Shown here one piece after another: positions 1 through 15,654 of a stretch of DNA of 64,000 bases; positions within the stretch are counted from its first letter, which is position 1, and every line of letters begins with the position of its first letter. The notes below the pieces were generated by a model. That model saw only the letters and a list, made by a program, of their open reading frames with translations, was not told the DNA's origin and did not search any database. The stretch covers positions 8,223 to 72,222 of the forward strand of contig DAINBB010000002.1 of the NCBI GenBank assembly GCA_036733165.1, given 5' to 3'. The translations under genes were made by a program, and so were the position numbers. Source of the stretch: Halobacteria archaeon. Its GTDB lineage: Archaea > Methanobacteriota_B > Thermococci > Methanofastidiosales > NM3.

Positions 1-816
1 GCGAAGGACGACGCCAAGCTTGCCGAGGTCGTGAGGAAGATAGAGGAGAAGAGCGTGGGGTATGATGACAAGGAGGAATTCTTCATCGAGAAGCTCAGCC
101 ACGGCGTTGCAAGGATAGCTGCCGGATTCTACCCCAACGACGTGATAGTGAGGCTTTCCGACTTCAAGACAAATGAATATGCCAACCTGATCGGAGGGTA
201 CCTGTACGAGCCGGAGGAACACAATCCCATGATCGGTTGGAGGGGCGCCTCCAGATATTACGATGAGGACTACAAGCCCGCCTTCGGTCTGGAATGCGAG
301 GCCATAAAGAGGGTCAGGAACGAGATGGGCCTCTCTAACGTTAAGACGATGGTCCCGTTCTGCAGGACCCCGGAGGAGGGAAGAAAGGTCATCGAGGTCA
401 TGAACGAATACGGTCTCAGGCAGGGCGACAACGGTCTCGAGGTCTATGTAATGGCCGAGATACCGTCCAACGTCATTGCCGCCGATGAGTTCTGCGATGT
501 CTTCGACGGATTCTCCATAGGATCAAACGACCTCACGCAGCTCACGCTAGGGTTGGACAGGGACTCGGAACTCGTGGCCCATATATACGACGAGAGGAAC
601 ATCGCCGTCAAGAGGATGGTCGCAAGCGTCATAAAGGTCGCGAAGGAGCGGGGCAGGAAGATAGGCATATGCGGTCAGGCGCCATCGGACTTCCCAGAGT
701 TCGCGGAATTCCTGGTCGAGTGCGGCATAGACTCGATGTCGCTCAACCCGGACACTGTCGTGAAGACGAAGCTGCTTGTAGCTGAAAAAGAGGAAAAAAT
801 GGGTATAAAACCATAA
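1..816 (+). CDS. ppsA: phosphoenolpyruvate synthase, C-terminal PEP-utilising TIM-barrel domain (5' partial, starts before the window)
   Basis: Reading frame is open from base 1. The translation has the PEP-utilising enzyme C-terminal signature (ICGQAPSDFPEF, SIGSNDLTQ) and a stop at 814-816. Confidence 0.75.
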   Translation, partial: AKDDAKLAEVVRKIEEKSVGYDDKEEFFIEKLSHGVARIAAGFYPNDVIVRLSDFKTNEYANLIGGYLYEPEEHNPMIGWRGASRYYDEDYKPAFGLECEAIKRVRNEMGLSNVKTMVPFCRTPEEGRKVIEVMNEYGLRQGDNGLEVYVMAEIPSNVIAADEFCDVFDGFSIGSNDLTQLTLGLDRDSELVAHIYDERNIAVKRMVASVIKVAKERGRKIGICGQAPSDFPEFAEFLVECGIDSMSLNPDTVVKTKLLVAEKEEKMGIKP

Positions 817-1146
817 TTCCTTCTTTATTTATTATTCAATCCCTTTCTCTTGTTTTTATATACAATCTTAGAAAGAGTGATCTTCATCGTGTCCCCTCGG
901 GGCCAGAGGTAATCGGGACAAAAGGAATGCTGTTCTGAACTTCTTGCCTTGAACTGACTGTCATGTGAAAAAAGTGACACTAAGATAAATTATCATATAA
1001 CTGTATTATATATTTTTAAGAAATATAAAAGAGCTTAACACAAAATATAAAAGTCAGTTAGAATCAATACCTCACTAATTAACAACGATAAAATTTCTGT
1101 AAGCAATGTCATCAACGAAGCGCTCTCCGTTGTTAGCAAACATCCA

Positions 1147-1791
1147 ATGATAATATTGATCTTCCTGATACCCGCCCTGATCTCCGTTCTGGGCGGTGCG
1201 GCCATCACCGGTGGTTCTGGAATCTTTGGTAACCTGGAAGATTTCCAGGCGGAAGACGGAAGCTTCGATATAGGTGACACTTTCAGTCTTGGCACATTCA
1301 TAGGTGTTGCAGCACTCGTATCGATCATAGTGAGTGTTATATCCATACTTGTGGGAGGCATAGCCATAGCAATGACCGCGGATGCTTTGGAAGGAAGGGA
1401 AGCGGATCTGTCCCGCGGTCTGGATGCCATCAAGGACAAGTGGCTCCTGCTCATCGTCGCGGCCATCGTGCTGGCGGTGCTTCAGTTCATCGGCGTTTTG
1501 GCCTGTTGCATAGGGTATGTGGTCGTTGTCATAGTAACGGTATTCGTCTATCAGGGACTGATATTGGACGACCTCGGACTGACAGAGTCTTTCAGCCATT
1601 CGTTCAATCTGGCCAAGAAAGTATGGCCAGACATATTGATCCTCTACATAATCGCCCTGATCGCGACAGTTGTATTGGCATTGATCCCATATTTGGGCAG
1701 CTTCCTCGGCGAACTCGTCACTGGATTCTTCACTGTGGCGTTCACGATATACTACCTCGGGATCACTCGCTCTGCCCCAACCGAACTATGA
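1147..1791 (+). CDS. hypothetical polytopic membrane protein
   Basis: 214 aa ORF that is strongly hydrophobic with several predicted TM helices and Gly/Ala/Ile/Val-rich segments. It is overlapped by an antisense ORF (1075-1599, minus) that I judge spurious. Confidence 0.4.
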   Translation: MIILIFLIPALISVLGGAAITGGSGIFGNLEDFQAEDGSFDIGDTFSLGTFIGVAALVSIIVSVISILVGGIAIAMTADALEGREADLSRGLDAIKDKWLLLIVAAIVLAVLQFIGVLACCIGYVVVVIVTVFVYQGLILDDLGLTESFSHSFNLAKKVWPDILILYIIALIATVVLALIPYLGSFLGELVTGFFTVAFTIYYLGITRSAPTEL

Positions 1792-2245
1792 CCAACGGAA
1801 GGAAGTAACTGATAAAGATAATGCCAAACAAGAATCCCGTGACAAGTCTCAACTCATTGGTGCTCTCCCGAAACCCCGCAAGCTGGGTGACCCCGTCGAC
1901 AGCAAGTGGGACGAGGGAAAGCAGGACGACCTTGAAGTCAGGGATTCTTGGATTTTCTATTTTATTGTATATAGGCATCAGGAACGTGCCTATGAGCAGC
2001 CCCAGATATATGCCAAAACATCTGGAACATACCGCCATCTTCTCGCCAAAGATGAACAACGATCGCTCCACCCTCTGGTGGCAGACGGTGCGATAGACCG
2101 AATAAAGGTTGTCCGAAGTGGCATCCAGCCCCCACGACTTCAAGAGCGGGGCGGATATTATGCCCATGAGCCAGACTATCTCCGCGCCCAGGGCCAGCAG
2201 GTAGACGGTCCTCATCCGCATATGGTAATAGGTGTGGAACGCCAT
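1763..2245 (-). CDS. DUF2085-family membrane protein
   Basis: 160 aa with a CHQ..RS....MAVCSRCFGIY motif typical of DUF2085, flanked by TM helices. Confidence 0.55.
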   Translation of the reverse strand: MAFHTYYHMRMRTVYLLALGAEIVWLMGIISAPLLKSWGLDATSDNLYSVYRTVCHQRVERSLFIFGEKMAVCSRCFGIYLGLLIGTFLMPIYNKIENPRIPDFKVVLLSLVPLAVDGVTQLAGFRESTNELRLVTGFLFGIIFISYFLPLVIVRLGQSE

Positions 2246-2303
2246 TTAATAATGTGATGCGTGAAGCTGGCAAGGTCGCAGAAATAAAAAGGGTATATTT
2301 ATC

Positions 2304-2930
2304 TTGTTCTCGTGCCGATATGTGACCATGCCCGAAACGATAAGGCTCCCCTCACCTCAGAAGGACCTTGATTTCCCTCTGATGAAAGCCTTGGAAAAAC
2401 GCAGATCCATCAGAAGGTGGGATGATGAACCCCCTTCATGCCAAGAACTCTCAAACCTTCTCTGGGCGGCCTGTGGAATCACCAAGGAAGGAACGAAGAG
2501 GATCAAGAGCAAAAGGACCTCCCCGTCCGCCTGTAATTCGCAGGCTATAAAGATATATGTTGCAATGAAGGAAGGGCTTTACCTCTATGATGAGAGGGAC
2601 CATCAATTGATTAAGATCCTCTCAAAGGACATTAGGGAGAGTATTGGCACCCAAAAAATGATGCATTCTGCCCCGATCGGACTTATCTATGTCTCTGATT
2701 ACTCCAAAATGAGGTCCCCTGTCTTCAAGGATGACGACCGAAGGTGGTTCATATCCGGGACTGATGCCGCATTTGTCAGCCAGAACGTCTATCTCTACTG
2801 CGCGGCTACGAAACTTAGCACGGTGATTCTCAGCCTGGTCGACAGGGACAGACTTCATGATATTATGGGCCTGGGAGGGAATGAGAAGGTTGTATACACG
2901 CAGGTGGTGGGCAGGGCATTGGATAGATAA
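2304..2930 (+). CDS. nitroreductase-family (SagB-type) oxidoreductase
   Basis: KRRSIRRW and LSNLLWAACG motifs typical of the nitroreductase fold. An alternative start is at 2328. Confidence 0.65.
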   Translation: MFSCRYVTMPETIRLPSPQKDLDFPLMKALEKRRSIRRWDDEPPSCQELSNLLWAACGITKEGTKRIKSKRTSPSACNSQAIKIYVAMKEGLYLYDERDHQLIKILSKDIRESIGTQKMMHSAPIGLIYVSDYSKMRSPVFKDDDRRWFISGTDAAFVSQNVYLYCAATKLSTVILSLVDRDRLHDIMGLGGNEKVVYTQVVGRALDR

Positions 2931-3040
2931 TTGCACTCATGACTCATATTGTATGCAAGAACCTATATTGTGCTGGTTGTCCCCACGATTAAATTTCTCT
3001 TTTGTATTCTTCATCGCCTCAACGGCCCCATAAACACAAA

Positions 3041-3052
3041 TCTTTTTAAACA
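3041..3052 (+). promoter_or_regulatory. putative TATA box (TTTTTAAA) upstream of the L13e-like gene, with an AGGTGA RBS at 3076-3081
   Basis: AT-rich octamer about 40 nt upstream of the ATG at 3087. A GGTGA Shine-Dalgarno sits 5 nt before that ATG. Confidence 0.3.
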
Positions 3053-3086
3053 ATGGTAGTTTACAACTGATATTCAGGTGATGTTT

Positions 3087-3653
3087 ATGTTTGAATCTAA
3101 GGTGAGAATTAACTATAACAACATGCATAAGATGAGAAATGGTAGGGGTTTTTCAAAAAAAGAACTAGAAGAGGCGGGATTGACCGTTGATGACGCCCTT
3201 TGGATGGGCATACCCGTCGACGTGAAGAGAAGAACTCTCTATGAGGAGAATGTGGAGACCATATCATCGCTTCTCGAACAGCTCAAAGTGCTGCAGGAAG
3301 AGTACGAGGAACAAAAGAAGGCAGAACTGGCAAGGCAGGAAGAGGTAAGGACCGAGAAGGAAAAGGATTCCAAGAAGAAAAAGAAGGCCAAGCCGGAGAA
3401 GAAGCCAAAGAAGGAGAAACCTGCAGAGGTCGAAGAGGTTGTTGAGGAGGAGCCTGTGGAAGAGGAATCCGAGGAATCGATTCCCTTGGAAATGATACCT
3501 GGTGTCGGTCCCAAGACCGCAGAGAGGTTGGTCGAGGCGGGTTACTCGACGGTGGACGATATCATGAATGCCACGGCCGAACAACTTGCCGAGATCAAGG
3601 GGATCTCCGAGAAGTCCGCCAAGGAAATAATAGAGAAAGCCAAGGGACTTTAG
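3087..3653 (+). CDS. ribosomal protein L13e-like domain fused to a K/E-rich linker and a C-terminal helix-hairpin-helix domain
   Basis: The N-terminus (RNGRGFSKKELEEAGL..GIPVDVKRRT..EENVETISSLLEQLK) matches the eukaryotic/archaeal L13e core (GRGFSLEEL..GISVDPRRRN..ESLQ.NVQRLKEY). The C-terminus (IPGVGPKTAERLVEAGYSTVDDI...LAEIKGISEKSAKEI) is a tandem HhH. A GGTGA RBS precedes the ATG at 3087; the listed ORF opens at a GTG at 3078. Confidence 0.55.
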   Translation: MFESKVRINYNNMHKMRNGRGFSKKELEEAGLTVDDALWMGIPVDVKRRTLYEENVETISSLLEQLKVLQEEYEEQKKAELARQEEVRTEKEKDSKKKKKAKPEKKPKKEKPAEVEEVVEEEPVEEESEESIPLEMIPGVGPKTAERLVEAGYSTVDDIMNATAEQLAEIKGISEKSAKEIIEKAKGL

Positions 3654-3663
3654 TTCCTTGCCC

Positions 3664-3675
3664 TTACTTTTTTTC
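3664..3675 (+). terminator. T7 tract between convergent genes (archaeal oligo-T terminator)
   Basis: TTTTTTT at 3668-3674 lies immediately after the L13e-like stop codon. Confidence 0.4.
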
Positions 3676-4541
3676 TAGAACATTTTCTCAGGTTGCCTTC
3701 CATCAAGGAACGGCAGTTCCATTGCTGACAGGTAGAGAGGCCTGTCGATGTCCTTCGCCCTGTCGAGCAAGAGCTCTTTCCCGATCTGGCTCAGAGCGAA
3801 GATGGGTATGGAAGAGCCTGCTTGGGCCATTATATGCCCTTTCAGATTCTCCCTCAACTGTCTCGAGGCGCAAGAGGTCACAAGGTCGCACCCGTCCAAT
3901 ATATCCTGGCTGAAGCAAAGACCAGTAGTGTGAACCAAAAAAGTAACGGCATCGTCGCCGAATGTCTCCTTGATACGTTTGGCCTCCTTAGGGTCCGCAA
4001 CGGTAACGCCGACCTTCGAATATCCAAGTTCCATGGCTCGTTTGACGCCAAGGAACTGGTCAATGCCGGCGTCTTCCGGGTCCAGAACAACACCTTCAAG
4101 TTGGGATATCCTATCTATAATCCCTCTTATTGGCGTGGTGCTGACCAGGCCTGAGAGCCTGGCGCCGATACCCTGGACCAGCTCCGGATTGGCGGATATC
4201 ACGGTCCCGGCGCCTTCGCATACGCATATTATGGCATCTAACCTATTTCTCTTGAGGGCGGACATGAAGATCTCGGAAGTGCCGAATCCGACGAAAACGT
4301 TCTGGAGAAGATTCCTCCTCTCAGTGAACAGCCCGAATTCCCGTATTCTCCCCTCTATGTTCTCCTTGATGATCTCCTTTGTGATCTTCTCAATTCCCTT
4401 GTGTTTGTAGAACAGCGGACAGAAGGATAACTTTGGTTCAGATACCGAGACCACAGTCCCGTTCTTGACTACCACTCTGGACATGCCGAGGGTCTCCATT
4501 ACATGTTCATCTTCCATAAAAAAGGAAGATAGTTTATCCAT
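3675..4541 (-). CDS. conserved archaeal hypothetical protein (possibly DUF2099 / methanogenesis-marker-8-like)
   Basis: 288 aa soluble protein with no hydrophobic segments. Family assignment is from memory only and is weak. Confidence 0.4.
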   Translation of the reverse strand: MDKLSSFFMEDEHVMETLGMSRVVVKNGTVVSVSEPKLSFCPLFYKHKGIEKITKEIIKENIEGRIREFGLFTERRNLLQNVFVGFGTSEIFMSALKRNRLDAIICVCEGAGTVISANPELVQGIGARLSGLVSTTPIRGIIDRISQLEGVVLDPEDAGIDQFLGVKRAMELGYSKVGVTVADPKEAKRIKETFGDDAVTFLVHTTGLCFSQDILDGCDLVTSCASRQLRENLKGHIMAQAGSSIPIFALSQIGKELLLDRAKDIDRPLYLSAMELPFLDGRQPEKMF

Positions 4542-4574
4542 ATAAAATTATGGAAAATACTATAAAAATAGTAG

Positions 4575-4648
4575 CGGGCCGTGAGGGATTCGAACCCCCG
4601 ACCGATGGATTAAGAGTCCATTGCTCTACCAGACTAAGCCAACGGCCC
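4575..4648 (-). tRNA. tRNA-Lys (anticodon CTT)
   Basis: 74 nt cloverleaf read on the minus strand. Acceptor stem is GGGCCGT/ACGGCCC, anticodon stem-loop is ATGGA-CTCTTAA-TCCAT, T-loop is GGGGGTTCGAATCCCTC, discriminator is G, and no CCA is encoded. Confidence 0.85.
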
Positions 4649-4794
4649 ATAGTAAAAAGAATATATCCCTTTTTAAAGTTTATGTTCAAATTTTATTTCT
4701 AGAAATGGTAATTCGCCATACTTATTAATAGATAACTTCCGGAATTGTATAGGCATTACGAGATGAAGAAACAACCTCTGGAATTGTTGCAAAT

Positions 4795-5163
4795 ATGAAG
4801 AATCCTGGGAAAGAAGATATCAAGGCATTGGAATCCGTGGCCTTGAAGTATGTTGAGGCCATCAACAATGGCGACTCAGAGTCTCTCGTTGCACTTCAGG
4901 CAGAAGACTTCACGTTCATCGATGTGGACGGAGTCCTGTCACAGGGCAAAATAAACTGGAAAGGATATTTTTCAGCCTATCCCAAATACAAAATCCATAT
5001 ACTAAAAGTATTGACAGGTGGCAACGGAGTGGCAATTATCGGCAAAACCACGGGTTCGCATGTGCCTCCTGAGATCGAAGAGAAAGAAACCGTTATTTGG
5101 ACCGCCGAGATTCGGGACGGCCTTATCGTTGAATGGAGAATATACACAGATGCGCGCTATTGA
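4795..5163 (+). CDS. NTF2-like / SnoaL-like small protein
   Basis: 122 aa ORF lying between the two tRNA genes. Sequence pattern fits a DUF4440/SnoaL-type fold (KYVEAINNGD..LVAL...DFTFI, and a WRIYTD C-terminus). Confidence 0.45.
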   Translation: MKNPGKEDIKALESVALKYVEAINNGDSESLVALQAEDFTFIDVDGVLSQGKINWKGYFSAYPKYKIHILKVLTGGNGVAIIGKTTGSHVPPEIEEKETVIWTAEIRDGLIVEWRIYTDARY

Positions 5164-5208
5164 ATGCCGGTAATTCTCCAACATCAAAAATCGATCTGTT
5201 TGTAATTA

Positions 5209-5287
5209 TGGGGCCAGGGCCGAGATTTGAACCCGAGTCAAAGGATCCACAGTCCTTTAGGATAGACCAAACTACCCTACCCCGGCC
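5209..5287 (-). tRNA. tRNA-His (anticodon GTG) with encoded G-1 and encoded 3' CCA
   Basis: Read on the minus strand as G-1, then acceptor GCCGGGG/CCCTGGC, anticodon loop CTGTGGA (GTG), T-loop GGGTTCAAATC, discriminator C paired with the extra 5' G-1, and CCA present in the DNA. Confidence 0.8.
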
Positions 5288-5429
5288 ACTAAAGCAATTC
5301 CAAAAGGTATTGATACACATTTAAATCTTTTGGTTTCATTTTTCTTGGAAAAATCTGTCAGGGAGACAATTTTCACTTTACCGCCGCTCTCTCTATAGGC
5401 TTATATTTAATTTTAACAAATCTCTATCA

Positions 5430-6650
5430 ATGGTCACTCTCGATAAGATGTTATCACTTGCCAAAGGCAGCAGATTCGACTCCACGGGGCCTGAAAAAAA
5501 CAGTGCCCCCGATCTTGAAAAGATATACGCCTTAGGGGATGCGACAAAACACGACATCTGCGTCTCAAGCGCCAGTTCCCGAAAGGTCACCGGCCTTGAC
5601 AGGATAGGGGATGTCGCAAAGGGGGGCATATGTCACTCCTTCTCCCATGACGGGAGATGTGTGAGCATGTTCAAGACATTGTTCACGAACGAGTGCAAAC
5701 ATCAATGCGCATATTGCTCCAACTCGACCACATGCAAGAAACATCACGCCAAGTTCTCATACGAACCACATGAACTCGCTAACCTGTTCATGAAGCTATA
5801 TCTGGGAAATTACGTGGAGGGCCTGTTCCTGTCCTCAGGGATAGGCGATGATGAGCATCGCACCATGGAACAGATGATCGAATCCACCAGGATATTGAGG
5901 GAGAGGCACAAGTTCGCAGGGTATGTGCACCTTAAGATACTGCCCGGCGCGGACAAGGAACATATCGCCCAGGCAGTTGAGCTGGCAGACAGGGTGAGTG
6001 TGAACATAGAGGTGCCAGATGCCGGATATATGGATGTCCTGAGCCCCACAAAGGACTACGACCTTGACATATTGAGAAGACAGAGATATATCAAGGGGCT
6101 TGAGAAAAGAAGGGGGCTGCCGGCAGGCCAGACCACACAGTTCGTCATCGGGGGGGCCAGCGAGAGCGACCGTGAGGTCTTCGATTCTGTCCTAAAGGAA
6201 TACGACGACATGAAGCTTAAGAGGGTCTATTATTCCTCATTCCTGCCTGTCGAGGGCACCGCACTGGAGGAAAACGCCGCACAGCCCACATGGAGGGAAC
6301 ATAGACTTTACCAGATAGATTGGTTGTATAGAGTTTATAAACTGGAGGACCGGGAGATATCGCTGGCGTTCAATGAAAACGACAATCTGCCCAACACCGA
6401 CCCCAAGGTCACGATAGCCAGAGAGACCATGGATTCCCCTATAGATCCAAATCTGGCCTCTTACGGCGAACTGCTCAGGGTGCCGGGGATAGGACCCATA
6501 AGCGCCAGACGGATAATATCTACAAGGAGGTCAGGGAGGATCAGGACCAGAAAAGAGCTCCACTATCTCGGCGTAAGGACGAAGAGGGCGGCCCCGTTCA
6601 TCAAGCTGGGCGGTTGGCAAGACTCGCTATTGGAAAGGTGGATCAATTGA
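5430..6650 (+). CDS. radical SAM protein of the putative DNA modification/repair family, with a C-terminal HhH
   Basis: C-x3-C-x2-C cluster (CKHQCAYC) and a C-terminal HhH (LRVPGIGPISARRIISTRR). Size and architecture match the TIGR03916-type radical SAM family. Confidence 0.6.
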   Translation: MVTLDKMLSLAKGSRFDSTGPEKNSAPDLEKIYALGDATKHDICVSSASSRKVTGLDRIGDVAKGGICHSFSHDGRCVSMFKTLFTNECKHQCAYCSNSTTCKKHHAKFSYEPHELANLFMKLYLGNYVEGLFLSSGIGDDEHRTMEQMIESTRILRERHKFAGYVHLKILPGADKEHIAQAVELADRVSVNIEVPDAGYMDVLSPTKDYDLDILRRQRYIKGLEKRRGLPAGQTTQFVIGGASESDREVFDSVLKEYDDMKLKRVYYSSFLPVEGTALEENAAQPTWREHRLYQIDWLYRVYKLEDREISLAFNENDNLPNTDPKVTIARETMDSPIDPNLASYGELLRVPGIGPISARRIISTRRSGRIRTRKELHYLGVRTKRAAPFIKLGGWQDSLLERWIN

Positions 6651-6664
6651 ACAAGAAGAACATC

Positions 6665-7237
6665 ATGAAATACCTATCATGCCACTGTGCATGCACTGAG
6701 GCCATATACAATCAGGCGATGAGGACAACGGCATCGGATATAGAGAACGCCAGGGACCAAAAGACCTCACGGATAAGATCCATGATATCTGCCGTCAGGC
6801 TCGAGGTGCACAAGATGAGGGGCTATGTAAGGCTTTCCCCATTGGGGGACAAGACACTGTACGGATATATGAGACCCAAACACAACATAGGAGAGATGGT
6901 CTCCAACATAATGGCGCACAGGTACCCCAACATGATAATAGTGCTTGGAAACTCCAACAAGAGCTGGATATCGCTCTATACGTCCGAGGGCATATCGTAC
7001 ATGTCCGATGGTCCATTGGAGAAGGTAGTTGAAAAACTTGGACAGCTCACAAAGACTTCCGGGGAAAAAACGGATATCGAAGGTGTGTGGGATGTATATT
7101 ACAAGAGCCAATACCGTCCCGAGAGGAGGAATCTGAAATATTTCCACCAGAACATGACTCTCACGTCCATGCGGTCCGTAAGGCCAAAACCAGAGTCCAA
7201 CAAGAACGGCGCCACGCTTGACTCATTTATGGAGTAA
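6665..7237 (+). CDS. possible partner protein of the radical SAM DNA modification/repair enzyme (DUF4130-like?)
   Basis: Immediately downstream on the same strand. The first in-frame ATG at 6614 would overlap the upstream gene, so the start is placed at 6665 (MKYLSCHC). The C-terminal segment WDVYYKSQYRPERRNLKYFHQNM resembles the DUF4130 core. This is from memory only. Confidence 0.4.
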   Translation: MKYLSCHCACTEAIYNQAMRTTASDIENARDQKTSRIRSMISAVRLEVHKMRGYVRLSPLGDKTLYGYMRPKHNIGEMVSNIMAHRYPNMIIVLGNSNKSWISLYTSEGISYMSDGPLEKVVEKLGQLTKTSGEKTDIEGVWDVYYKSQYRPERRNLKYFHQNMTLTSMRSVRPKPESNKNGATLDSFME

Positions 7238-7286
7238 CTGCCATTGGGTTCCTTACTTTTTTATAGTTCATCGCCATATTAATACC

Positions 7287-7625
7287 ATGAACATCATAAA
7301 GGTGTCAGATGTCCAAACGGCACAGACCCCACATAAGGTCGATGTCAGAAAACTGTTCGATAGCGAACATGTTCAACTGGTGCACATAGAGCTCAGGCCG
7401 GGGGAGAGCCTCAAGAAGCACATCACGCCGGTCGATGTGGCATTCTATGTCCTTGAGGGAGAGGGCACGGTGCTTATCGGCGAGGAAAAACAGAAAGTTG
7501 GTCCGGACTCCGTGGTCGAAAGCCCAAAGGGGATCGTTCATACCTGGTACAACGATGGCAAGGAAACGTTCAGAGTGCTGGTCATAAAGACGCCAAGGCC
7601 GACAGAAAACACAAGAACACTTTAA
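7287..7625 (+). CDS. cupin-domain protein
   Basis: ELRPGESLKKH....LEGEGTV pattern of a cupin_2 barrel. A longer ORF opens at 7218. Confidence 0.55.
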   Translation: MNIIKVSDVQTAQTPHKVDVRKLFDSEHVQLVHIELRPGESLKKHITPVDVAFYVLEGEGTVLIGEEKQKVGPDSVVESPKGIVHTWYNDGKETFRVLVIKTPRPTENTRTL

Positions 7626-7630
7626 TTTAC

Positions 7631-7652
7631 TTCATTTTTTATACTTTATTTT
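7631..7652 (+). terminator. oligo-T tracts after the cupin gene
   Basis: TTTTTT at 7635-7640 and TTTT at 7649-7652, directly after the stop at 7623-7625. Confidence 0.35.
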
Positions 7653-7750
7653 GTATAAATAGATGTAAAAATTTATAAGTGGTATTTTATCTCTATGAAA
7701 TAGTGTTTTACGACCATAAAATATATAAATAATCTCTTATCAATGAGGGA

Positions 7751-7759
7751 AAGGTGATA
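7751..7759 (+). promoter_or_regulatory. Shine-Dalgarno (AAGGTGATA) for the inositol-1-phosphate synthase gene, with an AT-rich TATA-like stretch at 7717-7730
   Basis: A GGTGA ends 4 nt upstream of the ATG at 7762. AAAATATATAAATA lies about 35-45 nt upstream. Confidence 0.4.
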
Positions 7760-7761
7760 GT

Positions 7762-8838
7762 ATGGGTAAGATCAGACTTGCTATAGCAGGAGTAGGCAAT
7801 TGCGCTTCATCTCTTATACAGGGACTTGAATATTACAAGGACGTCACAGAGAAGGACGACCTTGTGCCAGGTCTCATGCACAACGTGTTCGGTGACTACA
7901 AGATATCGGACATCGAACCGGTGGCAGCATTTGACGTTGATAACAGGAAGATAGGCCTAAAGCTTGAAGAGGCCATATTCGCGGGCGAGAACTGTACAAA
8001 GAAGTTCTCAGAAGGACTAAGGACCGATGTCGTGGTGCAAAGGGCGCCTGTCCTTGACGGGATCGGGAAGAAGCTCTCCGAGGTCATACCTGTTGACAAG
8101 AACGCTCCGACCGTCGATGTCGCACAGGTGTTGGAGGACACAAAGGCGGACATGCTCGTGTCTTACATGCCTGTCGGTTCTGAGAAGGCCGCCAGGTACT
8201 ATGCGGAGGAATGCCTGAAGTCGGGGACCGCGTTCGTGAACGGCATGCCGGAATTCATATGCTCTGATGAGGGATGGGCAAAGAGATTCGAGGAAGCCGG
8301 CATCCCCTGCGCAGGTGACGACATAAAGTCCCAAGTGGGGGCTACCATATTGCACAGGGTCCTCTCGAGGCTGTTTTTGGACCGTGGGGCGGAGATAGTC
8401 GAATCGTACCAGCTCAACATCGGCGGAAACACCGACTTCTACAACATGCTCGAGGAGGAGAGGCTAAAGTCCAAGAGAATATCAAAGACACAGGCGGTGC
8501 AATCTCTGGTACCATACAAGGTCCCGCTCAGGATAGGCCCGTCGGACTACGTTCCGTTCCTCAAGGACAACAAGGTCTGTTACATCAAGATGACCGGAAA
8601 GAAGTTCGGTGACATCCCGTTCGAGCTCGACCTCAAGCTGTCCGTCGAGGACTCTCCAAACTCCGCAGGTGTCATGATAGATGCGATAAGGGCAACAAAG
8701 ATCGCCCTGGACAGGAACATCTCTGGACAGTTGATCTCAATCTCATCGTACTCCTTCAAGCACCCGCCGCAGCAGTTCCCAGACGATGTCTGCAAGCGCA
8801 TGGTGGAAGAGTTCATCAAGGGCGAAAGGGAGAGATAG
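7762..8838 (+). CDS. myo-inositol-1-phosphate synthase (archaeal short form)
   Basis: 358 aa. Has the N-terminal Rossmann motif (IRLAIAGVGNCASSLIQG) and overall IPS-like layout. Confidence 0.75.
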   Translation: MGKIRLAIAGVGNCASSLIQGLEYYKDVTEKDDLVPGLMHNVFGDYKISDIEPVAAFDVDNRKIGLKLEEAIFAGENCTKKFSEGLRTDVVVQRAPVLDGIGKKLSEVIPVDKNAPTVDVAQVLEDTKADMLVSYMPVGSEKAARYYAEECLKSGTAFVNGMPEFICSDEGWAKRFEEAGIPCAGDDIKSQVGATILHRVLSRLFLDRGAEIVESYQLNIGGNTDFYNMLEEERLKSKRISKTQAVQSLVPYKVPLRIGPSDYVPFLKDNKVCYIKMTGKKFGDIPFELDLKLSVEDSPNSAGVMIDAIRATKIALDRNISGQLISISSYSFKHPPQQFPDDVCKRMVEEFIKGERER

Positions 8839-8840
8839 GA

Positions 8841-9110
8841 CTAACCTCCAAATGCCGGAGGTATCAGGGACAACGTGTCCCCATCCCTTATTTTTTCTTC
8901 TACATCGTTTATCAAGGTGCCATTCTTAAGAAATAGGATGTCCTCCATAATCCCACCATTCTCTAGTATCTCATCCAGGAACTTGCTCCCATACTTCAGT
9001 CCCAGTTGGTCTATCAGGTCCTTTATGGAAATGTTGTCAAGGTCCATGCTCACCTTCTGCACGCCGGTGGCAAGCCTGAAATGAGCTACGAATTCGACAG
9101 TGATGGTCAT
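8841..9110 (-). CDS. MoaD/ThiS-fold ubiquitin-like protein (SAMP-like) with a C-terminal Gly-Gly
   Basis: About 89 aa starting from the internal Met (MTITVEF...). The ORF ends ...IPPAFGG-stop, the -GG terminus typical of MoaD/SAMP. Confidence 0.5.
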   Translation of the reverse strand: MTITVEFVAHFRLATGVQKVSMDLDNISIKDLIDQLGLKYGSKFLDEILENGGIMEDILFLKNGTLINDVEEKIRDGDTLSLIPPAFGG

Positions 9111-9246
9111 CGTAGTGAAGAAAGGATAGAAATTAATAAATTTTTCTGATATCGGGCAAGGAACAAGTGACAAATAAGACCCGGACCCCCTTCTTCCTGT
9201 AAAAATTGCCAAGAAATCTTATATTGGCCAAACAACAATTAATCCT

Positions 9247-9963
9247 ATGACAAGATTGCTATTTCAAGAGGATTCCTACCTCAAGGAGGCGGATGCGGAG
9301 GTGTTGGAGATGGTCGATGGCAGCCTGGTCCTTGACAGGACGATCTTCTACCCCCAAGGAGGGGGACAGGATACCGACAGGGGGCATATGATGCTGAACG
9401 GCATCGTCCATCCCATCGACGAGGTCAAAAGGGCCTCCGGCAAGATACTGCACATGTCAAGCGTCCCATTCGTGGGCGCAGGGCCGGGGGATGTCGCAAG
9501 GATGACGCTGGACTGGGACAGGAGGTATACCATGATGAGGTACCATACGGCCCTCCATCTCCTCTCCTCAGTCGCTTACAAGGATTTCGGGGCCCAGATC
9601 ACCGGGAACAACATAGGCACCGAAAAGGCCAGGATAGACCTAAACCTGGAAGGGCTGTCGGAGGACGTAGTAAGGGACATAGAGAAAGGGACAAACGATC
9701 TGATATCGCGGGCCATTCCTGTTGATGTCAGGAACGTGGAGCGTTCTGAAGCCGAGTCGATGGTGGATCCAAAGAAGACCCGCCTTGACATGATCCCTCC
9801 CTCGGTGAGAAAGATAAGATTGATAGTTATCGGTGACAAGGACATAGACGCATGCGGCGGCACCCATGTGCACAACACCTCGGAGATAGCGGGCATAGAG
9901 ATATTCAATACCATCAACAAGGGAAGAGACAGGAAACGACTGGAGATAAGGCTGAAAAGATGA
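9247..9963 (+). CDS. alaX: alanyl-tRNA editing protein AlaX (AlaX-M type)
   Basis: Has the HxxxH (HTALHLL) and CGGTHV zinc-binding motifs of the AlaRS editing domain. Confidence 0.75.
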   Translation: MTRLLFQEDSYLKEADAEVLEMVDGSLVLDRTIFYPQGGGQDTDRGHMMLNGIVHPIDEVKRASGKILHMSSVPFVGAGPGDVARMTLDWDRRYTMMRYHTALHLLSSVAYKDFGAQITGNNIGTEKARIDLNLEGLSEDVVRDIEKGTNDLISRAIPVDVRNVERSEAESMVDPKKTRLDMIPPSVRKIRLIVIGDKDIDACGGTHVHNTSEIAGIEIFNTINKGRDRKRLEIRLKR

Positions 9964-10940
9964 TGTACAGAATGGGGCATTGCACATATGAGACCGGACT
10001 AGGGACCGACATCGTGGACAGCGGGCTGTGCTGCGGATGCGGAACGTGTGCCGCGATATGCCCAAAGGTGGGCGATATCAGGAAGTACAATCCCCTCATG
10101 CCACGTCATCTGCTAGGCACTGCCGAAGCGGATGGGGATGAGGTATGCGAAAGGTGCCTTGAGGTGTGCCCCATGAGGAACAGGGCCCTTGGAGAGGGCA
10201 TCGGGCCCGTTGTCTCGGCCTGGAGGGCAAGGGCCACCGACCCGGACATATTGTCAAGGTGCCAGGACGGCGGGGCATGCACAGCCTTCTTGAGGTCGTT
10301 GAACGGCATGGTGCCGCTGGGAATATCATCCAAGGAGGGGATGCCCCTTCCTGTCATGGGGGCTCCGATGGAATGCATGGGCACAAAGTATGGAGCCACC
10401 GCCTCGCTCTCCTTCCTGTCAAGGAAGACAAGGGATGTGGCGTTCGTCGGGTTGCCATGTCAGCTGACAGGCATTGAATTGTCGCAGAGACATGGCCTGT
10501 TGGATTCCATAAAGCTCAGGATCGGACTCTTCTGCACAAGGAACTTCCATCACAGGGAGCTCGAGAAGACGTTGGAAAGAGAAGGGGTCGACACCGGCGA
10601 TGTGGACAAGATAGAGATCAGGGGCAAGCTGATAGTGTCTATGAAAAACGGCGAGAGGACGACATTTCCCCTATCAAGATTCGACAACTGTGTCCTGGAC
10701 GGATGCAGGACGTGCCAGGACCTCTGCTGTTTCAATGGGGACATAGCCTTCGGGTCCCTGGGAAGCGATGACGGATATACGACCGTGTTGATAAGGAACG
10801 AGAAGGCGCAGATGTTGTTCGATGATGCCATCCAACGTGGTTTTATAAAGGCCGACGACAAGATTGATATGGACCTCATAGTCCGTTCCCAGGAGATCAA
10901 GAGGGTGCAGAATGGACAAGCTCATAATGATAGACCTTGA
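9960..10940 (+). CDS. coenzyme F420 hydrogenase/dehydrogenase beta-subunit family protein (FrhB/FdhB-like) with an N-terminal Cys cluster
   Basis: Start overlaps the alaX stop (ATGATG at 9960). N-terminal GLCCGCGTCAAICPKV Fe-S motif, with FrhB_FdhB-like N and C regions. Confidence 0.55.
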   Translation: MMYRMGHCTYETGLGTDIVDSGLCCGCGTCAAICPKVGDIRKYNPLMPRHLLGTAEADGDEVCERCLEVCPMRNRALGEGIGPVVSAWRARATDPDILSRCQDGGACTAFLRSLNGMVPLGISSKEGMPLPVMGAPMECMGTKYGATASLSFLSRKTRDVAFVGLPCQLTGIELSQRHGLLDSIKLRIGLFCTRNFHHRELEKTLEREGVDTGDVDKIEIRGKLIVSMKNGERTTFPLSRFDNCVLDGCRTCQDLCCFNGDIAFGSLGSDDGYTTVLIRNEKAQMLFDDAIQRGFIKADDKIDMDLIVRSQEIKRVQNGQAHNDRP

Positions 10941-11388
10941 GAAATGCATTGGATGCAGGCTATGCGAGCAGATGTGCTCTCTGCATCACGAGAATGCGAT
11001 AAGGCCCGCGTACTCAAGGATACATGCGATACTGTGGGAGGAGGAAGGTGTGAGCGTGCCTGTGGTATGCATCCAATGCGATGAGGCGCCATGTGTAGGC
11101 GCATGTAAGTACGATGCCCTGTGGAGGGACCCGTCGACCGGCGCGATCCTGGTGATGGAGGAAAACTGCATAGGCTGCAAGATGTGCATGGTCGCCTGCC
11201 CATACGGTTGCATGGGATATGACAAGGACAGACACAAGGTCTTCAAGTGCGACCTCTGCGGAGGGGACCCGAAATGCTGCGATATCTGTCCCAGCGGCGC
11301 CTTGAGCTACATAAAGGCGGAAAAGACGGCGATAGACAAGAAAAGGTCGTTCGCCAGGCCGTATGCAAGGCAGGTCTCGGGCCATTAG
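10912..11388 (+). CDS. 4Fe-4S dicluster ferredoxin-domain protein
   Basis: Two CxxCxxCxxxCP motifs (CIGCRLCEQMC, CIGCKMCMVACP) plus a Cys-rich tail (CDLCGGDPKCCDICP). Overlaps the upstream gene. Confidence 0.6.
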   Translation: MDKLIMIDLEKCIGCRLCEQMCSLHHENAIRPAYSRIHAILWEEEGVSVPVVCIQCDEAPCVGACKYDALWRDPSTGAILVMEENCIGCKMCMVACPYGCMGYDKDRHKVFKCDLCGGDPKCCDICPSGALSYIKAEKTAIDKKRSFARPYARQVSGH

Positions 11389-12164
11389 GACTGGTCGTCC
11401 GCGCTTTCAGGAACGATGGCGCCCTTCATTCTTTTCGCGTCATCGACGCTGACAAACCTTGACACTATCAGGTATATCCCGCCGAACACCAGCACAGACC
11501 CGGCCAGGTCCTCCCAGGTGTGTTCGCCAAGGTATAGCACGGTGAACGTTGTAAGTATCAGGTTCAGCAAGAGGAACCACATGTACTTGTTATAGACGCT
11601 CAGTTTTGTCTTGATGTGGTTGTATCTGGCTATGAGAAATCCAAGGAAGATGTAACCGAAGTGCCCCGATGGCATGCCACCGTACTTTACACTTACAAGG
11701 ATATCGGATATTGGCAGCGCCTCAAGCCTTATGGCCCTGGCGCCAGAGTCCCATCTCAGGGGCGGTGCCACGGGGAATATCATCTCAAGGCCGAAGTGCG
11801 CCAGCCAGCATGCGACCACTGCGATTCCCCATTTCCATCCATCCTTCCCCTGCTTGATCATAAGGTATTGAAGCAGTATGAGGCATATTATGAAACCTAT
11901 CGGATAATAGATTGACAGTATGAGGTCCAATGACGGCGTGGATAGGTGCTCTTGTATCCATATCGTCAGATTGGGCGAGAACGTGATATACCACGATGGG
12001 TGCTCTATGAGGAACTGGAGGGATTGGTAGAATATGAGGAACAGTACCACGAATGCGGCATAGACGCAATTCCTTCTGTATGAGAAGAATTCCCTCAGGT
12101 CCTTCAAAATGACAAAGAAATGGTCTTTGAACTTCCCCATAAAGAGAAGAAAAAACAAATCCAA
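11385..12164 (-). CDS. PAP2-superfamily membrane phosphatase (putative)
   Basis: Polytopic membrane protein with PSGH and HTWED motifs resembling PAP2 motifs 2 and 3. Confidence 0.4.
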   Translation of the reverse strand: MDLFFLLFMGKFKDHFFVILKDLREFFSYRRNCVYAAFVVLFLIFYQSLQFLIEHPSWYITFSPNLTIWIQEHLSTPSLDLILSIYYPIGFIICLILLQYLMIKQGKDGWKWGIAVVACWLAHFGLEMIFPVAPPLRWDSGARAIRLEALPISDILVSVKYGGMPSGHFGYIFLGFLIARYNHIKTKLSVYNKYMWFLLLNLILTTFTVLYLGEHTWEDLAGSVLVFGGIYLIVSRFVSVDDAKRMKGAIVPESADDQS

Positions 12165-12237
12165 TAAAAAGTTTTTGCTCTTTTATACTTTTTTCAATCG
12201 ATATTGTTTATCTGCCAACCGGCACATGAATCAACAT

Positions 12238-13404
12238 ATGCAGAAAACAAAAATGGTCATTCTAAGCCTCTTCTTTTCCATTGTCGGGGTAGGGTTCCTT
12301 TTTTTCGAGTCTGGCGCCCTCACGCCGATTGTGCCGCAGGGGCCCCTTGAATCGTTCATGGGGTCATACGTCTCGCTCGAAGGCGTTGTGTGCAGGAAGT
12401 TCGAGTCAAAGGGCAATCTGTTCATTGTGATAAGGGGAGACTATGAGGTGGAGGTACCGATTTTCTATGGGTTGAAGGAAAGTCTTGGAAGGGTGCCTGA
12501 CCTGGGGGACTGGGTAAATGTCCAGGGTGTCCTGGAGGAAGTGCCACAGGAATACCTCAGGGAGTACTGGCCCAAATTCTCCCTGTCCGTCAATGAGGCA
12601 TATGAGATAGAGGTGGGAGAGATACATCAGGCGTTCCTCGACAAGACGTATGACTATAGCCTTTCGAGGGCGGGGCTCGTGCTGTGCTTGGAGGGGAAGA
12701 TAGAACTTATCGAGGACGGTACCGCCTATGTGAACGGAGTGGGGGTCCCGGCGTCAGAGGAGATGAGTATCGCGGATAGGATCACCGGCAAGGTGCTCGT
12801 GGTCGAGAACGACCACAAACTGGAGAACATACCCATAGAGATGGACCTGCTACCCGCCGATGTGGTGCCATTGGGCAATGTTGTCTTGCAGGGGGAATCC
12901 TACCGGACAAGGGGCACCGTCGAAGAGATGAGACCGTACTACTCCGGGCTCCTTATCACGCTTGTAGAAGATGGTCGTTCGCTTGAGGTCTATGCAAGGA
13001 ACATGGCCCCAATATTCTTCAGGGACGTGATATGTGCCAGGGGGATATTCAAGGAGTTCAGGGGACGCGAACTGCTCTATGTCGGTTCATCGCTTGACAT
13101 TGTGGTCGAGGAAAGAGGTATTGAGGACCCGGTCTTGGCCATGTCGGCGGGACAGAGATCGCTGGTGGTCGCCAACGTGATCGGCGAGGACATGGTAGGC
13201 AAGCATAGGGTGGTCCAACTTTCGGTATCCGGACAGGCCATCAACTGCCATCTGTACTGCGACGAGCTTGAAGATATGGAAAAAATGGGAAGGGACCTGG
13301 GCCTTCTAGAGAAAGGGAGTGTTATTGTCGCGTATCTGGAGATTATAGAAAAAAATGGATTGATAGAGTCGAAACTAATCGACTTTCTGCCTTATTATAA
13401 ATAG
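12238..13404 (+). CDS. membrane-anchored or secreted hypothetical protein
   Basis: Start placed at MQKTKM to avoid overlapping the PAP2-like gene. Has an N-terminal TM/signal segment, then a soluble beta-rich region. Confidence 0.4.
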   Translation: MQKTKMVILSLFFSIVGVGFLFFESGALTPIVPQGPLESFMGSYVSLEGVVCRKFESKGNLFIVIRGDYEVEVPIFYGLKESLGRVPDLGDWVNVQGVLEEVPQEYLREYWPKFSLSVNEAYEIEVGEIHQAFLDKTYDYSLSRAGLVLCLEGKIELIEDGTAYVNGVGVPASEEMSIADRITGKVLVVENDHKLENIPIEMDLLPADVVPLGNVVLQGESYRTRGTVEEMRPYYSGLLITLVEDGRSLEVYARNMAPIFFRDVICARGIFKEFRGRELLYVGSSLDIVVEERGIEDPVLAMSAGQRSLVVANVIGEDMVGKHRVVQLSVSGQAINCHLYCDELEDMEKMGRDLGLLEKGSVIVAYLEIIEKNGLIESKLIDFLPYYK

Positions 13405-13438
13405 ATATAAATATGAAAAGGAAGACTATTAAAAAGCA

Positions 13439-13573
13439 ATGACTGGTACCTCTCCCAAAAAAAAGGAAAAGAAACTGCCCGAGGAGTTCATTCCAGTGCT
13501 TATGAAACATGCCAAGAAACATATGCTGGAAGAAGAGAAGAAGGGCATCTTTCGCAAACTTCCTATAAAATAA
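13439..13573 (+). CDS. candidate small basic protein (44 aa)
   Basis: ATG...TAA ORF (MTGTSPKKKEKKLPEEFIPVLMKHAKKHMLEEEKKGIFRKLPIK) in an intergenic AT-rich stretch. It falls below the ORF-track length cutoff. Confidence 0.2.
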   Translation: MTGTSPKKKEKKLPEEFIPVLMKHAKKHMLEEEKKGIFRKLPIK

Positions 13574-13623
13574 TGGCATGGGGTCCAGAAAACTTTTTAT
13601 TTATTGCTCATCACTTTTGTATA

Positions 13624-15101: not shown

Positions 15102-15299
15102 TTTCCCTTTTGATATTTTTTATATTATATAAGTATTATTTATTCATTGTTCATTGTTTTATCTGTCATTAATTCATTAATTTATGTTATATATGACATT
15201 TTATAAACAATATGATTTTTAAGGGACTATTTTGGATATAATCAGGATTATAATAAGATTTATAAATATTTGATGTAAGATAGATAAGGAGGTCTTTGT

Positions 15300-15590
15300 T
15301 TGAACGGCAGTTACATACAAAGAAGTGTCGATTCTTCGGTATTTGAGGACTTTAGAAAACTTTCTATTCCCCTTTCAAAGAGTCCTGTCAGCGTCATTGA
15401 TAACAAAGATGAACTTGACATTGACGAGAGCCTTATGTTTCTCATCTACGAACTGATGACGAAAAATAAGATGTCCTACGACAACCTTGAAGAGATCGAT
15501 ATTTTCAAAAAGACACTGAAAGATATAGTTGATGAACTATACTCAGGCCCTGCAGTCGACTATGTTGTCTTGAATCTGGAAAAGAAGTAA
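15300..15590 (+). CDS. small acidic hypothetical protein (TTG start in the ORF track)
   Basis: 96-codon ORF following a 200 bp AT-rich region. No recognisable motif. Confidence 0.25.
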   Translation: MNGSYIQRSVDSSVFEDFRKLSIPLSKSPVSVIDNKDELDIDESLMFLIYELMTKNKMSYDNLEEIDIFKKTLKDIVDELYSGPAVDYVVLNLEKK

Positions 15591-15654
15591 ACCTTCAATG
15601 TTATATGATCACTGATTGGTATCCTATTAATCCAATCCCATCCTTCTTTTTTTT

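Follow-up and report, generated by a model that had tools for sequence, protein, structure and literature searches.

A native radical SAM-DUF4130 operon of Candidatus Methanofastidiosa with a short-form partner protein, a conserved promoter element and a probable place in DNA repair

The gene pair made up of a radical S-adenosylmethionine (SAM) protein of family TIGR03916 and a DUF4130 protein is present, according to the TIGRFAMs description, in about a fifth of prokaryotic genomes, and it forms a widespread 'DNA repair?' pair without a known reaction. In Acinetobacter, a radical SAM gene and a TIGR03915-family gene belong to the damage-response set activated by DdaA (PMC12392091), a two-gene COG1573-COG4277 operon of Bacteroidetes, Verrucomicrobia and Alphaproteobacteria was described as a LexA-regulated repair system based on uracil-DNA glycosylase (UDG) (PMC8565304), and DUF4130 was tied to SOS-associated systems by Aravind and colleagues (PMC3765255). 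Here, we analyzed an archaeal pair found in a 64,000-nucleotide (nt) stretch of contig DAINBB010000002.1, the whole of which is called the window below. Open reading frame 1 (ORF1; 5430-6650, + strand) encodes a radical SAM/helix-hairpin-helix (HhH) protein of family TIGR03916 with a length of 406 amino acids (aa), and ORF2 (6647-7237, + strand) encodes a short-form DUF4130 partner of 196 aa with a TTG start. The COG1573-COG4277 operon is probably this same radical SAM/DUF4130 pair; we take COG4277 to be the TIGR03916 family from the name of the COG, and the JGI product name 'predicted DNA-binding helix-hairpin-helix protein', carried by many homologues, is a second basis for this equation. 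By this analysis, the pair forms an operon that is native to the chromosome of Candidatus Methanofastidiosa and is passed on vertically, and we regard it as reasonably probable that it is a native DNA-damage repair enzyme and not a mobile or defence module.

ORF1 matched the NCBIfam model TIGR03916 with 350.3 bits (cut-off 343.5, E 1.7e-104, model positions 3-380 of 415), and the Pfam domains Radical_SAM and HHH_3 were located at residues 85-250 and 337-378, the latter (nt 6438-6563) scoring 30.7 bits against a threshold of 27. The CxxxCxxC cluster, C89-x3-C93-x2-C96 (nt 5694-5717), is invariant in 63 homologues and also in bacterial relatives. C68, H69 and C77, together with a cysteine at position 44/45, are kept from archaea to Paracoccus and Acinetobacter, and C44, C68, H69 and C77 of ORF1 may be ligands of a second metal site, judging from this conservation. 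The secondary NCBIfam matches (LipS2, LipS1, BioB and ThiH) are weak. When solved structures were searched by sequence, no match was obtained for ORF1 or ORF2 except that the HhH module of ORF1 alone matched the ComEA-related PDB entry 2duy (E 5.8e-5). The AlphaFold2 model of ORF1 has a predicted local distance difference test score (pLDDT) of 84 and a predicted template modelling score of 0.81, with low confidence at residues 45-65, and its nearest solved folds in Foldseek are BioB, HydE, PylB, LipA and ThiH (E 3e-7 to 1e-5, about 205-220 aligned core columns, root-mean-square deviation of about 3 Å). The archaeal radical SAM proteins also carry a conserved N-terminal addition of about 25-30 residues that is not found in the bacterial ones. 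A protein identical to ORF1 (P0006) and a homologue of ORF2 at 99% identity (P0001) are present at NCBI, both from Candidatus Methanofastidiosa, and the ORF1/ORF2 locus itself was found on contigs from four metagenomes. At one Methanotrichaceae locus (L033:4803-5991, from a metagenome-assembled genome), the radical SAM frame is broken and leaves a 176-aa ORF from the conserved start; a frameshift or pseudogene would account for this, or else an error of assembly.

Pfam DUF4130 (PF13566) scored 69.4 bits on ORF2 (cut-off 27), aligning residues 33-182 of the 207-aa reading to model positions 12-137 of 146. That reading begins at position 6614 of the ORF list and is too long; ORF2 is taken as a 196-aa protein from TTG 6647 because all close homologues begin at that residue, and the gene callers agree. 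ORF1 and ORF2 overlap by 4 nt (TTG at 6647-6649, TGA at 6648-6650), and this overlap of stop and start codons suggests translational coupling. TIGR03915 (SAM_7_link_chp, an equivalog-domain model) scored only 64.4 bits on ORF2 (cut-off 112.25), over model positions 79-233 of 243, and other archaeal partners from Methanothrix and Methanofastidiosum scored 52-91 bits, compared with 190-258 bits over positions 1-243 for the bacterial long forms of about 260 aa. One bacterial protein of 480 aa (P0248) is a fusion of the partner with a TIGR03914 UdgX-type domain. A profile-profile comparison of 66 short with 24 long forms in hhalign (probability 99.9, E 2.7e-32) aligned short positions 6-176 to long positions 78-246, and the short form is therefore considered a true homologue without the N-terminal ~75 residues. 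A full search of 1.84 billion representatives with HMMER returned 287 relatives at E ≤ 0.001, the best of which are 185-235 aa in length, with weaker ones of 240-260 aa whose match starts at residue 75-130. Every archaeal partner examined is of the short form, lacking both the N-terminal ~75 residues and a UDG fusion. A tblastn search with the UDG domain of P0248 gave nothing below E 1 in the window and nothing at E ≤ 0.01 in the fetched loci, and neither the window nor any of the locus flanks encodes the N-terminal domain of the long form. The UDG-like domain is optional in the TIGR03916/DUF4130 family. Short forms have a conserved H13 and C16 of their own, in addition to the family-wide motifs E-x-H-(R/K)-M-R-G-(F/Y)-V-R, L-Y-G-Y, P-x-H and W-x2-YY-x-SQ-x2-ERRN. 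Judged by these comparisons, ORF2 is the archaeal short-partner variant of a known family, the truncated variant being new here.

The AlphaFold2 model of ORF2 has a mean pLDDT of 84, with residues 1-130 above 90 and residues 131-196 at 60-74, a profile which suggests that the latter may fold on the partner or on the substrate. Its best solved matches are RecJ, archaeal RecJ2, PAP phosphatase and Cdc45 of the DHH family, and they are weak (E 5e-3 to 0.1, probability 0.9-1.0, TM-score 0.34-0.43 on the query). A likeness of bacterial DUF4130 to a DHH/RecJ-type fold was likewise reported in a preprint, in which AlphaFold 3 also predicts a high-confidence complex for a bacterial radical SAM/DUF4130 pair (bioRxiv 10.64898/2026.08.19.745780). 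An earlier, sequence-only reading of this stretch had recognized ORF1 as a TIGR03916 protein with CxxxCxxC and a C-terminal HhH, and the next, slightly overlapping gene on the same strand as its likely DUF4130 partner; both identifications hold at the scores given above. Its proposal of a UDG-superfamily/DUF4130 partner stands for the DUF4130 part and fails for the UDG-like part, which this truncated partner lacks, and in the model search that it had suggested TIGR03916 and DUF4130 passed their cut-offs and TIGR03915 fell short of its own. It had further called the function of the pair uncharacterised, which agrees with the searchable literature.

The two genes were found to be paired throughout the loci retrieved. 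The radical SAM gene lies directly upstream on the same strand in all 25 loci fetched via the DUF4130 partner (25/25), and in locus L044 as well, and a short DUF4130 gene lies directly downstream in all eight loci fetched via the radical SAM protein (8/8). These paired loci cover Methanofastidiosa, Methanotrichaceae, other Methanosarcinales, Thermoplasmata and Altiarchaeota, the genome scan for partner loci having been built on a 14-sequence alignment. A census of 111 flanking proteins revealed lineage-specific synteny (Pyridox_ox_2, methyltransferases, rhodanese and three photolyases), with no universal third gene among them.

In Methanofastidiosa, the gene order mm8 (methanogenesis marker 8), tRNA-Lys, tRNA-His, radical SAM, DUF4130, ino1 (myo-inositol-1-phosphate synthase), ThiS, AlaX and FrhB-like is kept in four species, i.e. 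the window and three sister loci (L005, L011 and L006), and the pair is present in all four (4/4). The identity to the window at L005, L011 and L006 is 70%, 67% and 66% for the radical SAM protein, 73%, 64% and 56% for DUF4130 and 76%, 69% and 69% for mm8. The pair is thus considered vertically inherited, since its divergence tracks that of the flanking core genes and the gene order is conserved. Its GC content agrees with that of the flanks, and, relative to the 61 genes of the window, neither its GC content at third codon positions (GC3; z +0.5 and +0.4) nor its synonymous-codon distance deviates by more than one standard deviation. Other neighbours vary: a SnoaL-like gene is found in the window only, an amine oxidase and a MatE gene in L005 and a DUF7000 gene in L011, and a cupin gene (7288-7625 in the window) is present in the window, L005 and L011 and absent from L006. 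In a second Methanofastidiosa clade (clade B; L007, L010, L012 and L014), where the radical SAM identity is 59-61%, the order is S3Ae, tRNA-Arg, ABC transporter, tRNA-Leu, one or more variable genes and then the pair.

The sequence-only reading had placed the pair immediately downstream of two tRNA genes, a location that raised for it the possibility of an accessory module at an insertion hotspot, anti-phage or DNA-modifying, whose enzyme would write a modified base into host DNA. The two tRNAs are real, tRNA-Lys(CUU) at 4574-4648 and tRNA-His(GUG) at 5209-5286, and the same tRNA pair occurs in L005, L006 and L011, the adjacency being a point in favour of a hotspot. The stated position needs correcting: both tRNAs lie on the minus strand, tRNA-His is transcribed away from the pair, and the pair therefore sits divergently on the 5' (promoter) side of tRNA-His. 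The promoters of tRNA-His and of the operon occupy one 143-nt spacer, whose tRNA-side half is conserved between the window and L006. Between the two tRNAs lies the SnoaL-like gene (4795-5163, + strand; Pfam SnoaL_2), which is absent from L005, L006 and L011, the tRNAs being about 60 nt apart in the last two. Located on the 3' side of tRNA-His and slightly lower in GC (0.46; GC3 z -0.7), this gene, and not the radical SAM pair, is the candidate for a hotspot insertion. No tRNA-derived direct repeats were detected in 4400-7900, and no integrase was found among the genes called across window positions 1-16,650. A metagenome scan with the mm8 protein for empty sites led to one distant locus, and Rfam and tandem-repeat scans revealed nothing relevant. 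Clade B does place the pair 3' of tRNA-Leu, and its locus L012, with a Fic-family neighbour and a tRNA-like fragment, likewise fits a hotspot, as do the patchy distribution of the family across prokaryotes and its presence on some plasmids. Nevertheless, a tRNA-targeted island was rejected for the pair on the tests of repeats (which took in the sister clade too), composition, codon usage, synteny and integrases.

In L012, the Fic-family gene stands where the photolyase gene sits in the other clade-B loci, a tRNA T-arm-like fragment (ATATGGCGGGTTCGAAT, L012:4583-4599) lies just upstream of the radical SAM promoter, and a complete tRNA-Arg(TCG) (L012:6755-6828) lies just downstream of DUF4130. 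The fragment and the tRNA-Arg could be the remnant of a rearrangement.

Searches of defence and mobile-element collections were in line with the chromosomal context. At E ≤ 0.01, PADLOC-DB 2.0 contained no family matching ORF1, ORF2, the cupin or the SnoaL protein (0 families). Pattern scans of 2.9 million viral contigs revealed three weak radical SAM relatives and no partner. Of 50,697 phage records, ten matched, namely eight unannotated faecal metagenome fragments and two 240-kb contigs which are regarded as host DNA because they carry glyS/glyQ, and among 72,556 plasmid records there were 164 matches, 146 of them on non-mobilizable large replicons; the family is rare on plasmids. A defence system was rejected on the zero PADLOC matches and the near-absence from viral contigs. 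As synteny, composition, repeats, PADLOC and the mobile-element counts all oppose it, and as the bacterial relatives are damage-regulated, the accessory or anti-phage module that had been proposed is unsupported, and we consider it highly improbable. The comparison of orthologous loci suggested in the same reading found the pair in a syntenic core context within each lineage, the very observation that it had named as speaking against itself. The 240-kb record L041 (CAKLQH020000003.1, 'Acinetobacter phage MD-2021a') carries glyS, glyQ, aidB and housekeeping genes around its radical SAM pair, and it appears to be a piece of bacterial chromosome deposited under a phage name.

The operon has a promoter block of its own at 5371-5414 (+ strand), which is conserved in the four clade-A species. 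It comprises an upstream element ACTTTACC (5375-5382, + strand), a CT-rich stretch GCTCTCTCT (5386-5394, + strand) and a TATA-like box TTATATTTAA (5401-5410, + strand) centred about 25 nt before the ATG, a spacing that, by general archaeal promoter architecture, suggests a leaderless or near-leaderless mRNA. When the sequences upstream of the radical SAM start of the four syntenic species were aligned, a 40-nt block TTTCACTTTACCGCCGCTCTCTCTATAGGCTTATATTTAA (window 5371-5410) was found to be conserved, and it is kept whether a tRNA-His, an amine-oxidase gene or a DUF7000 gene lies upstream. In 31 of 34 loci, the start codon is preceded at 53-59 nt by an octamer AC(T/G/C)TT(C/A)(G/A/C)N; the Thermoplasmata locus L034 has AGTTTCGG at -55 and L044 has ACTTTCGC at -54. 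In total, the element was present in 33 of 35 archaeal loci, equal to 25 of 27 non-redundant upstream regions, plus L044, and it was missing only from L009 and the Altiarchaeota locus L042. With the sequences anchored on the motif, the 9 nt ahead of it carry about 0 bits of information, ACTTTCGC itself 1-2 bits and the C-rich positions after it about 1 bit; the value then returns to about 0, climbs to 0.5-1.3 bits at an A/T-rich box lying 25-31 nt past the motif, and is about 0 bits from there on. As read from the alignment, this pattern is a phylogenetic footprint of an upstream site and a TATA box, and it persists in the clade-B loci, where a photolyase gene ends just before. The extended form of the element is yACTTTCGCyCCGCA in Methanotrichales and Methanosarcinales and (C/G)AC(T/G)TTAC(C/A) in Methanofastidiosa. 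No description of the motif was found in the searchable literature.

About 420 kb of fetched archaeal DNA and the 64-kb window were then scanned for the motif, an A/T-rich box and an ORF at a set distance, and a total of 38 hits were obtained, 28 of which are radical SAM promoters. Three hits precede nreA (Pfam Nre_N and Nre_C; motif at -54) in three Methanosarcinales loci (L028:250-305, L029:107-162 and L030:6-61), and one, on the minus strand of Thermoplasmata L034 around 6010-5950, precedes an XPD/Rad3 helicase gene (DEAD_2, HBB and Helicase_C_2; motif at -59). The other six hits are noise-like, being mostly internal starts or short antisense ORFs, and L036 contributes one uncharacterised ORF to them. 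The NreA gene of that locus shows a loose resemblance with another spacing and was not counted as a carrier of the element. A comparable element is known from Sulfolobus, where a damage-response element bound by Orc1-2, 5'-AATAGTTTCRGWDTACTCWS-3' with the core ANTTTC, lies 23-55 nt before the ATG (PMC6061795). At -53 to -59, the archaeal radical SAM promoters read ACTTTC/AGTTTC in Methanotrichales, Methanosarcinales and Thermoplasmata, and ACTTTA/ACGTTA in the window and Methanofastidiosa; an overlapping ATTTTC at window 5369-5374 is not conserved in the sister species. The likeness to the Sulfolobus damage-response element is suggestive, not proof. Since the element ACTTT(C/A) at about -55 is common to the nreA and xpd promoters of other archaea, the operon probably belongs to a DNA-repair regulon. 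The broader claim, that the operon marks an undescribed DNA-repair regulon of Methanotrichales, Methanosarcinales and Thermoplasmata, with a variant in Methanofastidiosa, in which nreA and xpd are likewise under an ANTTTC-related upstream activating element, yACTTTCGCyCCGC, placed ~20-25 nt ahead of the TATA box and at about -55 relative to the start codon, is put forward as a speculative possibility, on the doubtful side. If it were true, a damage-response circuit of the Orc1/Cdc6-paralogue type would reach far beyond Crenarchaeota, and in strict anaerobes the radical SAM enzyme would be the arm of this circuit that reverses lesions without oxygen or light.

Further links to DNA repair came from the neighbourhood and from the bacterial relatives. 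A gene for a class II cyclobutane pyrimidine dimer (CPD) photolyase (TIGR00591, 466 bits) lies directly upstream at three clade-B loci of strict anaerobes (L007:6605-7945, L010:4598-5938 and L014:3369-4718), its end 42-62 nt from the radical SAM gene, and is absent from L012, M. harundinacea has a gene for an Ogg-type glycosylase next to the pair and convergent with it, and bacterial relatives of the partner are fused to a UdgX-type domain. The adjoining photolyase, and the grouping of DUF4130-linked enzymes with 'SplB-like radical SAM photolyases' (PMC3765255), would also suit membership of the SplB family with specific repair of 5-thyminyl-5,6-dihydrothymine. Against this, no SplB model was found among the NCBIfam matches at E ≤ 0.01, spore photoproduct lyase is not known to work with a DUF4130 partner and is not among the best 50 Foldseek PDB matches of ORF1, and SplB (COG1533) and COG4277 are separate SOS members (PMC8565304). 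For want of both a sequence-model match and a best-50 fold match, membership of SplB was rejected, and we rate this reading as very unlikely.

Modification of tRNA or rRNA in the manner of RlmN/Cfr or MiaB, with DUF4130 as the RNA-recognition domain, was also weighed. MiaB and RlmN appear at ranks 29 and 49 among the best 50 Foldseek PDB matches of ORF1, tRNA genes lie near the pair in both Methanofastidiosa clades, and the AlphaFold 3 preprint puts DUF4130 at the position of the MiaB TRAM domain, with a narrow channel for single strands (bioRxiv 10.64898/2026.08.19.745780). Nevertheless, closeness to tRNA genes is no known mark of modification enzymes, the UdgX-type domain to which bacterial partners are fused binds uracil in DNA, bacterial regulation follows DNA damage, the promoter element is common to nreA and xpd, and the HhH is of the ComEA/Pol X DNA-binding type. 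An RNA substrate is therefore judged unlikely.

Several observations weigh against repair as the function, or against the regulon. No biochemical or genetic result was found for any family member, and literature searches on UdgX with radical SAM, on COG4277 and on the literal motif returned no characterisation. The nearest solved folds of ORF1 (BioB, HydE, PylB, LipA, ThiH and viperin) are not DNA enzymes, and the absence of spore photoproduct lyase from its best 50 matches points in the same direction. The C-terminal third of ORF2, which carries its most conserved motif, is modelled with low confidence. The adjacency of the photolyase gene may be positional only, as the radical SAM gene keeps its own promoter element there. 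The regulon link consists of four non-radical-SAM promoters in two lineages, the element in the lineage of the window is ACTTTAC, not ACTTTC, and there is no second copy of it in the 64-kb window.

DNA-damage repair remains the preferred explanation, and the following scheme is offered for it. ORF1 would hold a [4Fe-4S] cluster via C89, C93 and C96 and would cleave SAM to give a 5'-deoxyadenosyl radical, its C-terminal (HhH)2 module would grip the DNA backbone independently of sequence, and C44, C68, H69 and C77 may bind an auxiliary metal site. ORF2, made by coupled translation, would have no catalytic activity and would serve as a nucleotide-binding subunit of RecJ/DHHA1-like type, offering either the damaged nucleotide or a stretch of single strand to the radical site, with the two proteins forming a heterodimer. 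The radical would take a hydrogen from a damaged, probably pyrimidine, base, and the lesion would be directly reversed or processed with no light or oxygen required, transcription of both genes coming presumably from the operon's own promoter. We infer the heterodimer, the DNA substrate, the nature of the lesion and the inducibility, and the specific lesion-reversal chemistry is advanced only tentatively.

Other features of the region were also noted. Imperfect 23-nt direct repeats (7249-7271 and 7627-7649; 78% identity), containing a T-run and a TATA-like sequence, surround the cupin gene and could be duplicated terminator/promoter sequence or the trace of an insertion. At 3078-3653, a ribosomal protein L13e is fused to a C-terminal HhH (HHH_5/HHH_2) via a Lys/Glu-rich linker, which is partly encoded by an 18-nt tandem repeat (3372-3418), and the fusion is kept in L005 and L006. 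In two archaeal lineages that are not related to each other, an ino1 gene was observed within 1-2.5 kb of the pair (7762-8838 in the window; about 2.0-3.7 kb in L026, L028, L029 and L030), and on a Paracoccus yeei plasmid (L040:1-3148) the inositol catabolism genes iolD, iolE and iolB flank the pair; this proximity of inositol genes is probably a coincidence. Farther downstream in the window, a 30-nt unit is repeated in tandem in 2.2 copies (13813-13878), and the GC content drops sharply to 0.32 at ~15.0-15.6 kb (15000-15600).

The stable chromosomal operon and the element common to nreA and xpd constitute independent, non-bacterial evidence for a repair role of the family. The most useful outcome is this conserved upstream element, which links the operon with nreA and xpd; as a motif of 13-15 nt whose position is fixed, it would provide a handle on DNA-damage and repair regulons in methanogens and Thermoplasmata, where no such damage regulon was found in the searchable literature. 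The DUF4130 core is sufficient alone, the archaeal partners doing without the N-terminal domain as well as the UDG fusion, and the short-partner pair offers a minimal system of ~600 residues for biochemistry and structure. If radical lesion reversal is indeed the reaction, it would explain base repair in dark-living strict anaerobes without photolyase or oxygen-dependent enzymes.

Compared with known systems, ORF1 resembles BioB, LipA, HydE, PylB and ThiH in the generic core at 13-18% identity, and, like these auxiliary-cluster enzymes, it has an additional conserved set of cysteines and histidine. However, its additional cysteines are spaced differently and sit in a low-confidence region of the model, and the five enzymes have neither an HhH module nor a DUF4130 partner. 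The ORF2 model is weakly similar to the DHH/DHHA1 fold of RecJ, RecJ2/GAN, PAP phosphatase and Cdc45 (8-12% identity), whereas no DHH or GGGH catalytic motif is present among the conserved residues of ORF2. SplB serves as a model for the chemistry, being a DNA-binding radical SAM enzyme that repairs a pyrimidine lesion (the UV thymine dimer) without light; it is a single subunit and is not known to have a DUF4130 partner or a C-terminal HhH.

With regard to the promoter, the ACTTTCG of the archaeal radical SAM promoters fits the ANTTTC core of the Sulfolobales element, the sequence A(C/G)TTTC(G/A) likewise occupies a fixed place above the TATA box within ~60 nt of the ATG, and the first 11 nt of the Sulfolobales consensus are found unchanged in L034 (AATAGTTTCGG). 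The two differ in that the 3' half of the radical SAM element is C-rich (CCCGC), that the Methanofastidiosa variant has an A where the ANTTTC core has a C (ACTTTAC in the window copy), and that the Sulfolobales element occurs in other lineages than Methanotrichales, Methanosarcinales, Thermoplasmata and Methanofastidiosa. The closest relative is the bacterial pair, whose radical SAM-HhH protein is 38-41% identical to the archaeal one over 90% of its length and keeps the CxxxCxxC, C68/H69/C77 and the HhH, whose genes stand in the same order with overlapping stop and start codons, and whose partner is homologous to the archaeal one over the DUF4130 core. In contrast, the archaeal partner measures 187-229 aa versus ~250-260 aa in bacteria, or ~480 aa with the UDG fusion, no archaeal locus has a UDG-like domain within 6-10 kb, and neither has the window, and control of the archaeal pair would run through an archaeal upstream element in place of the LexA box of the bacterial pair.

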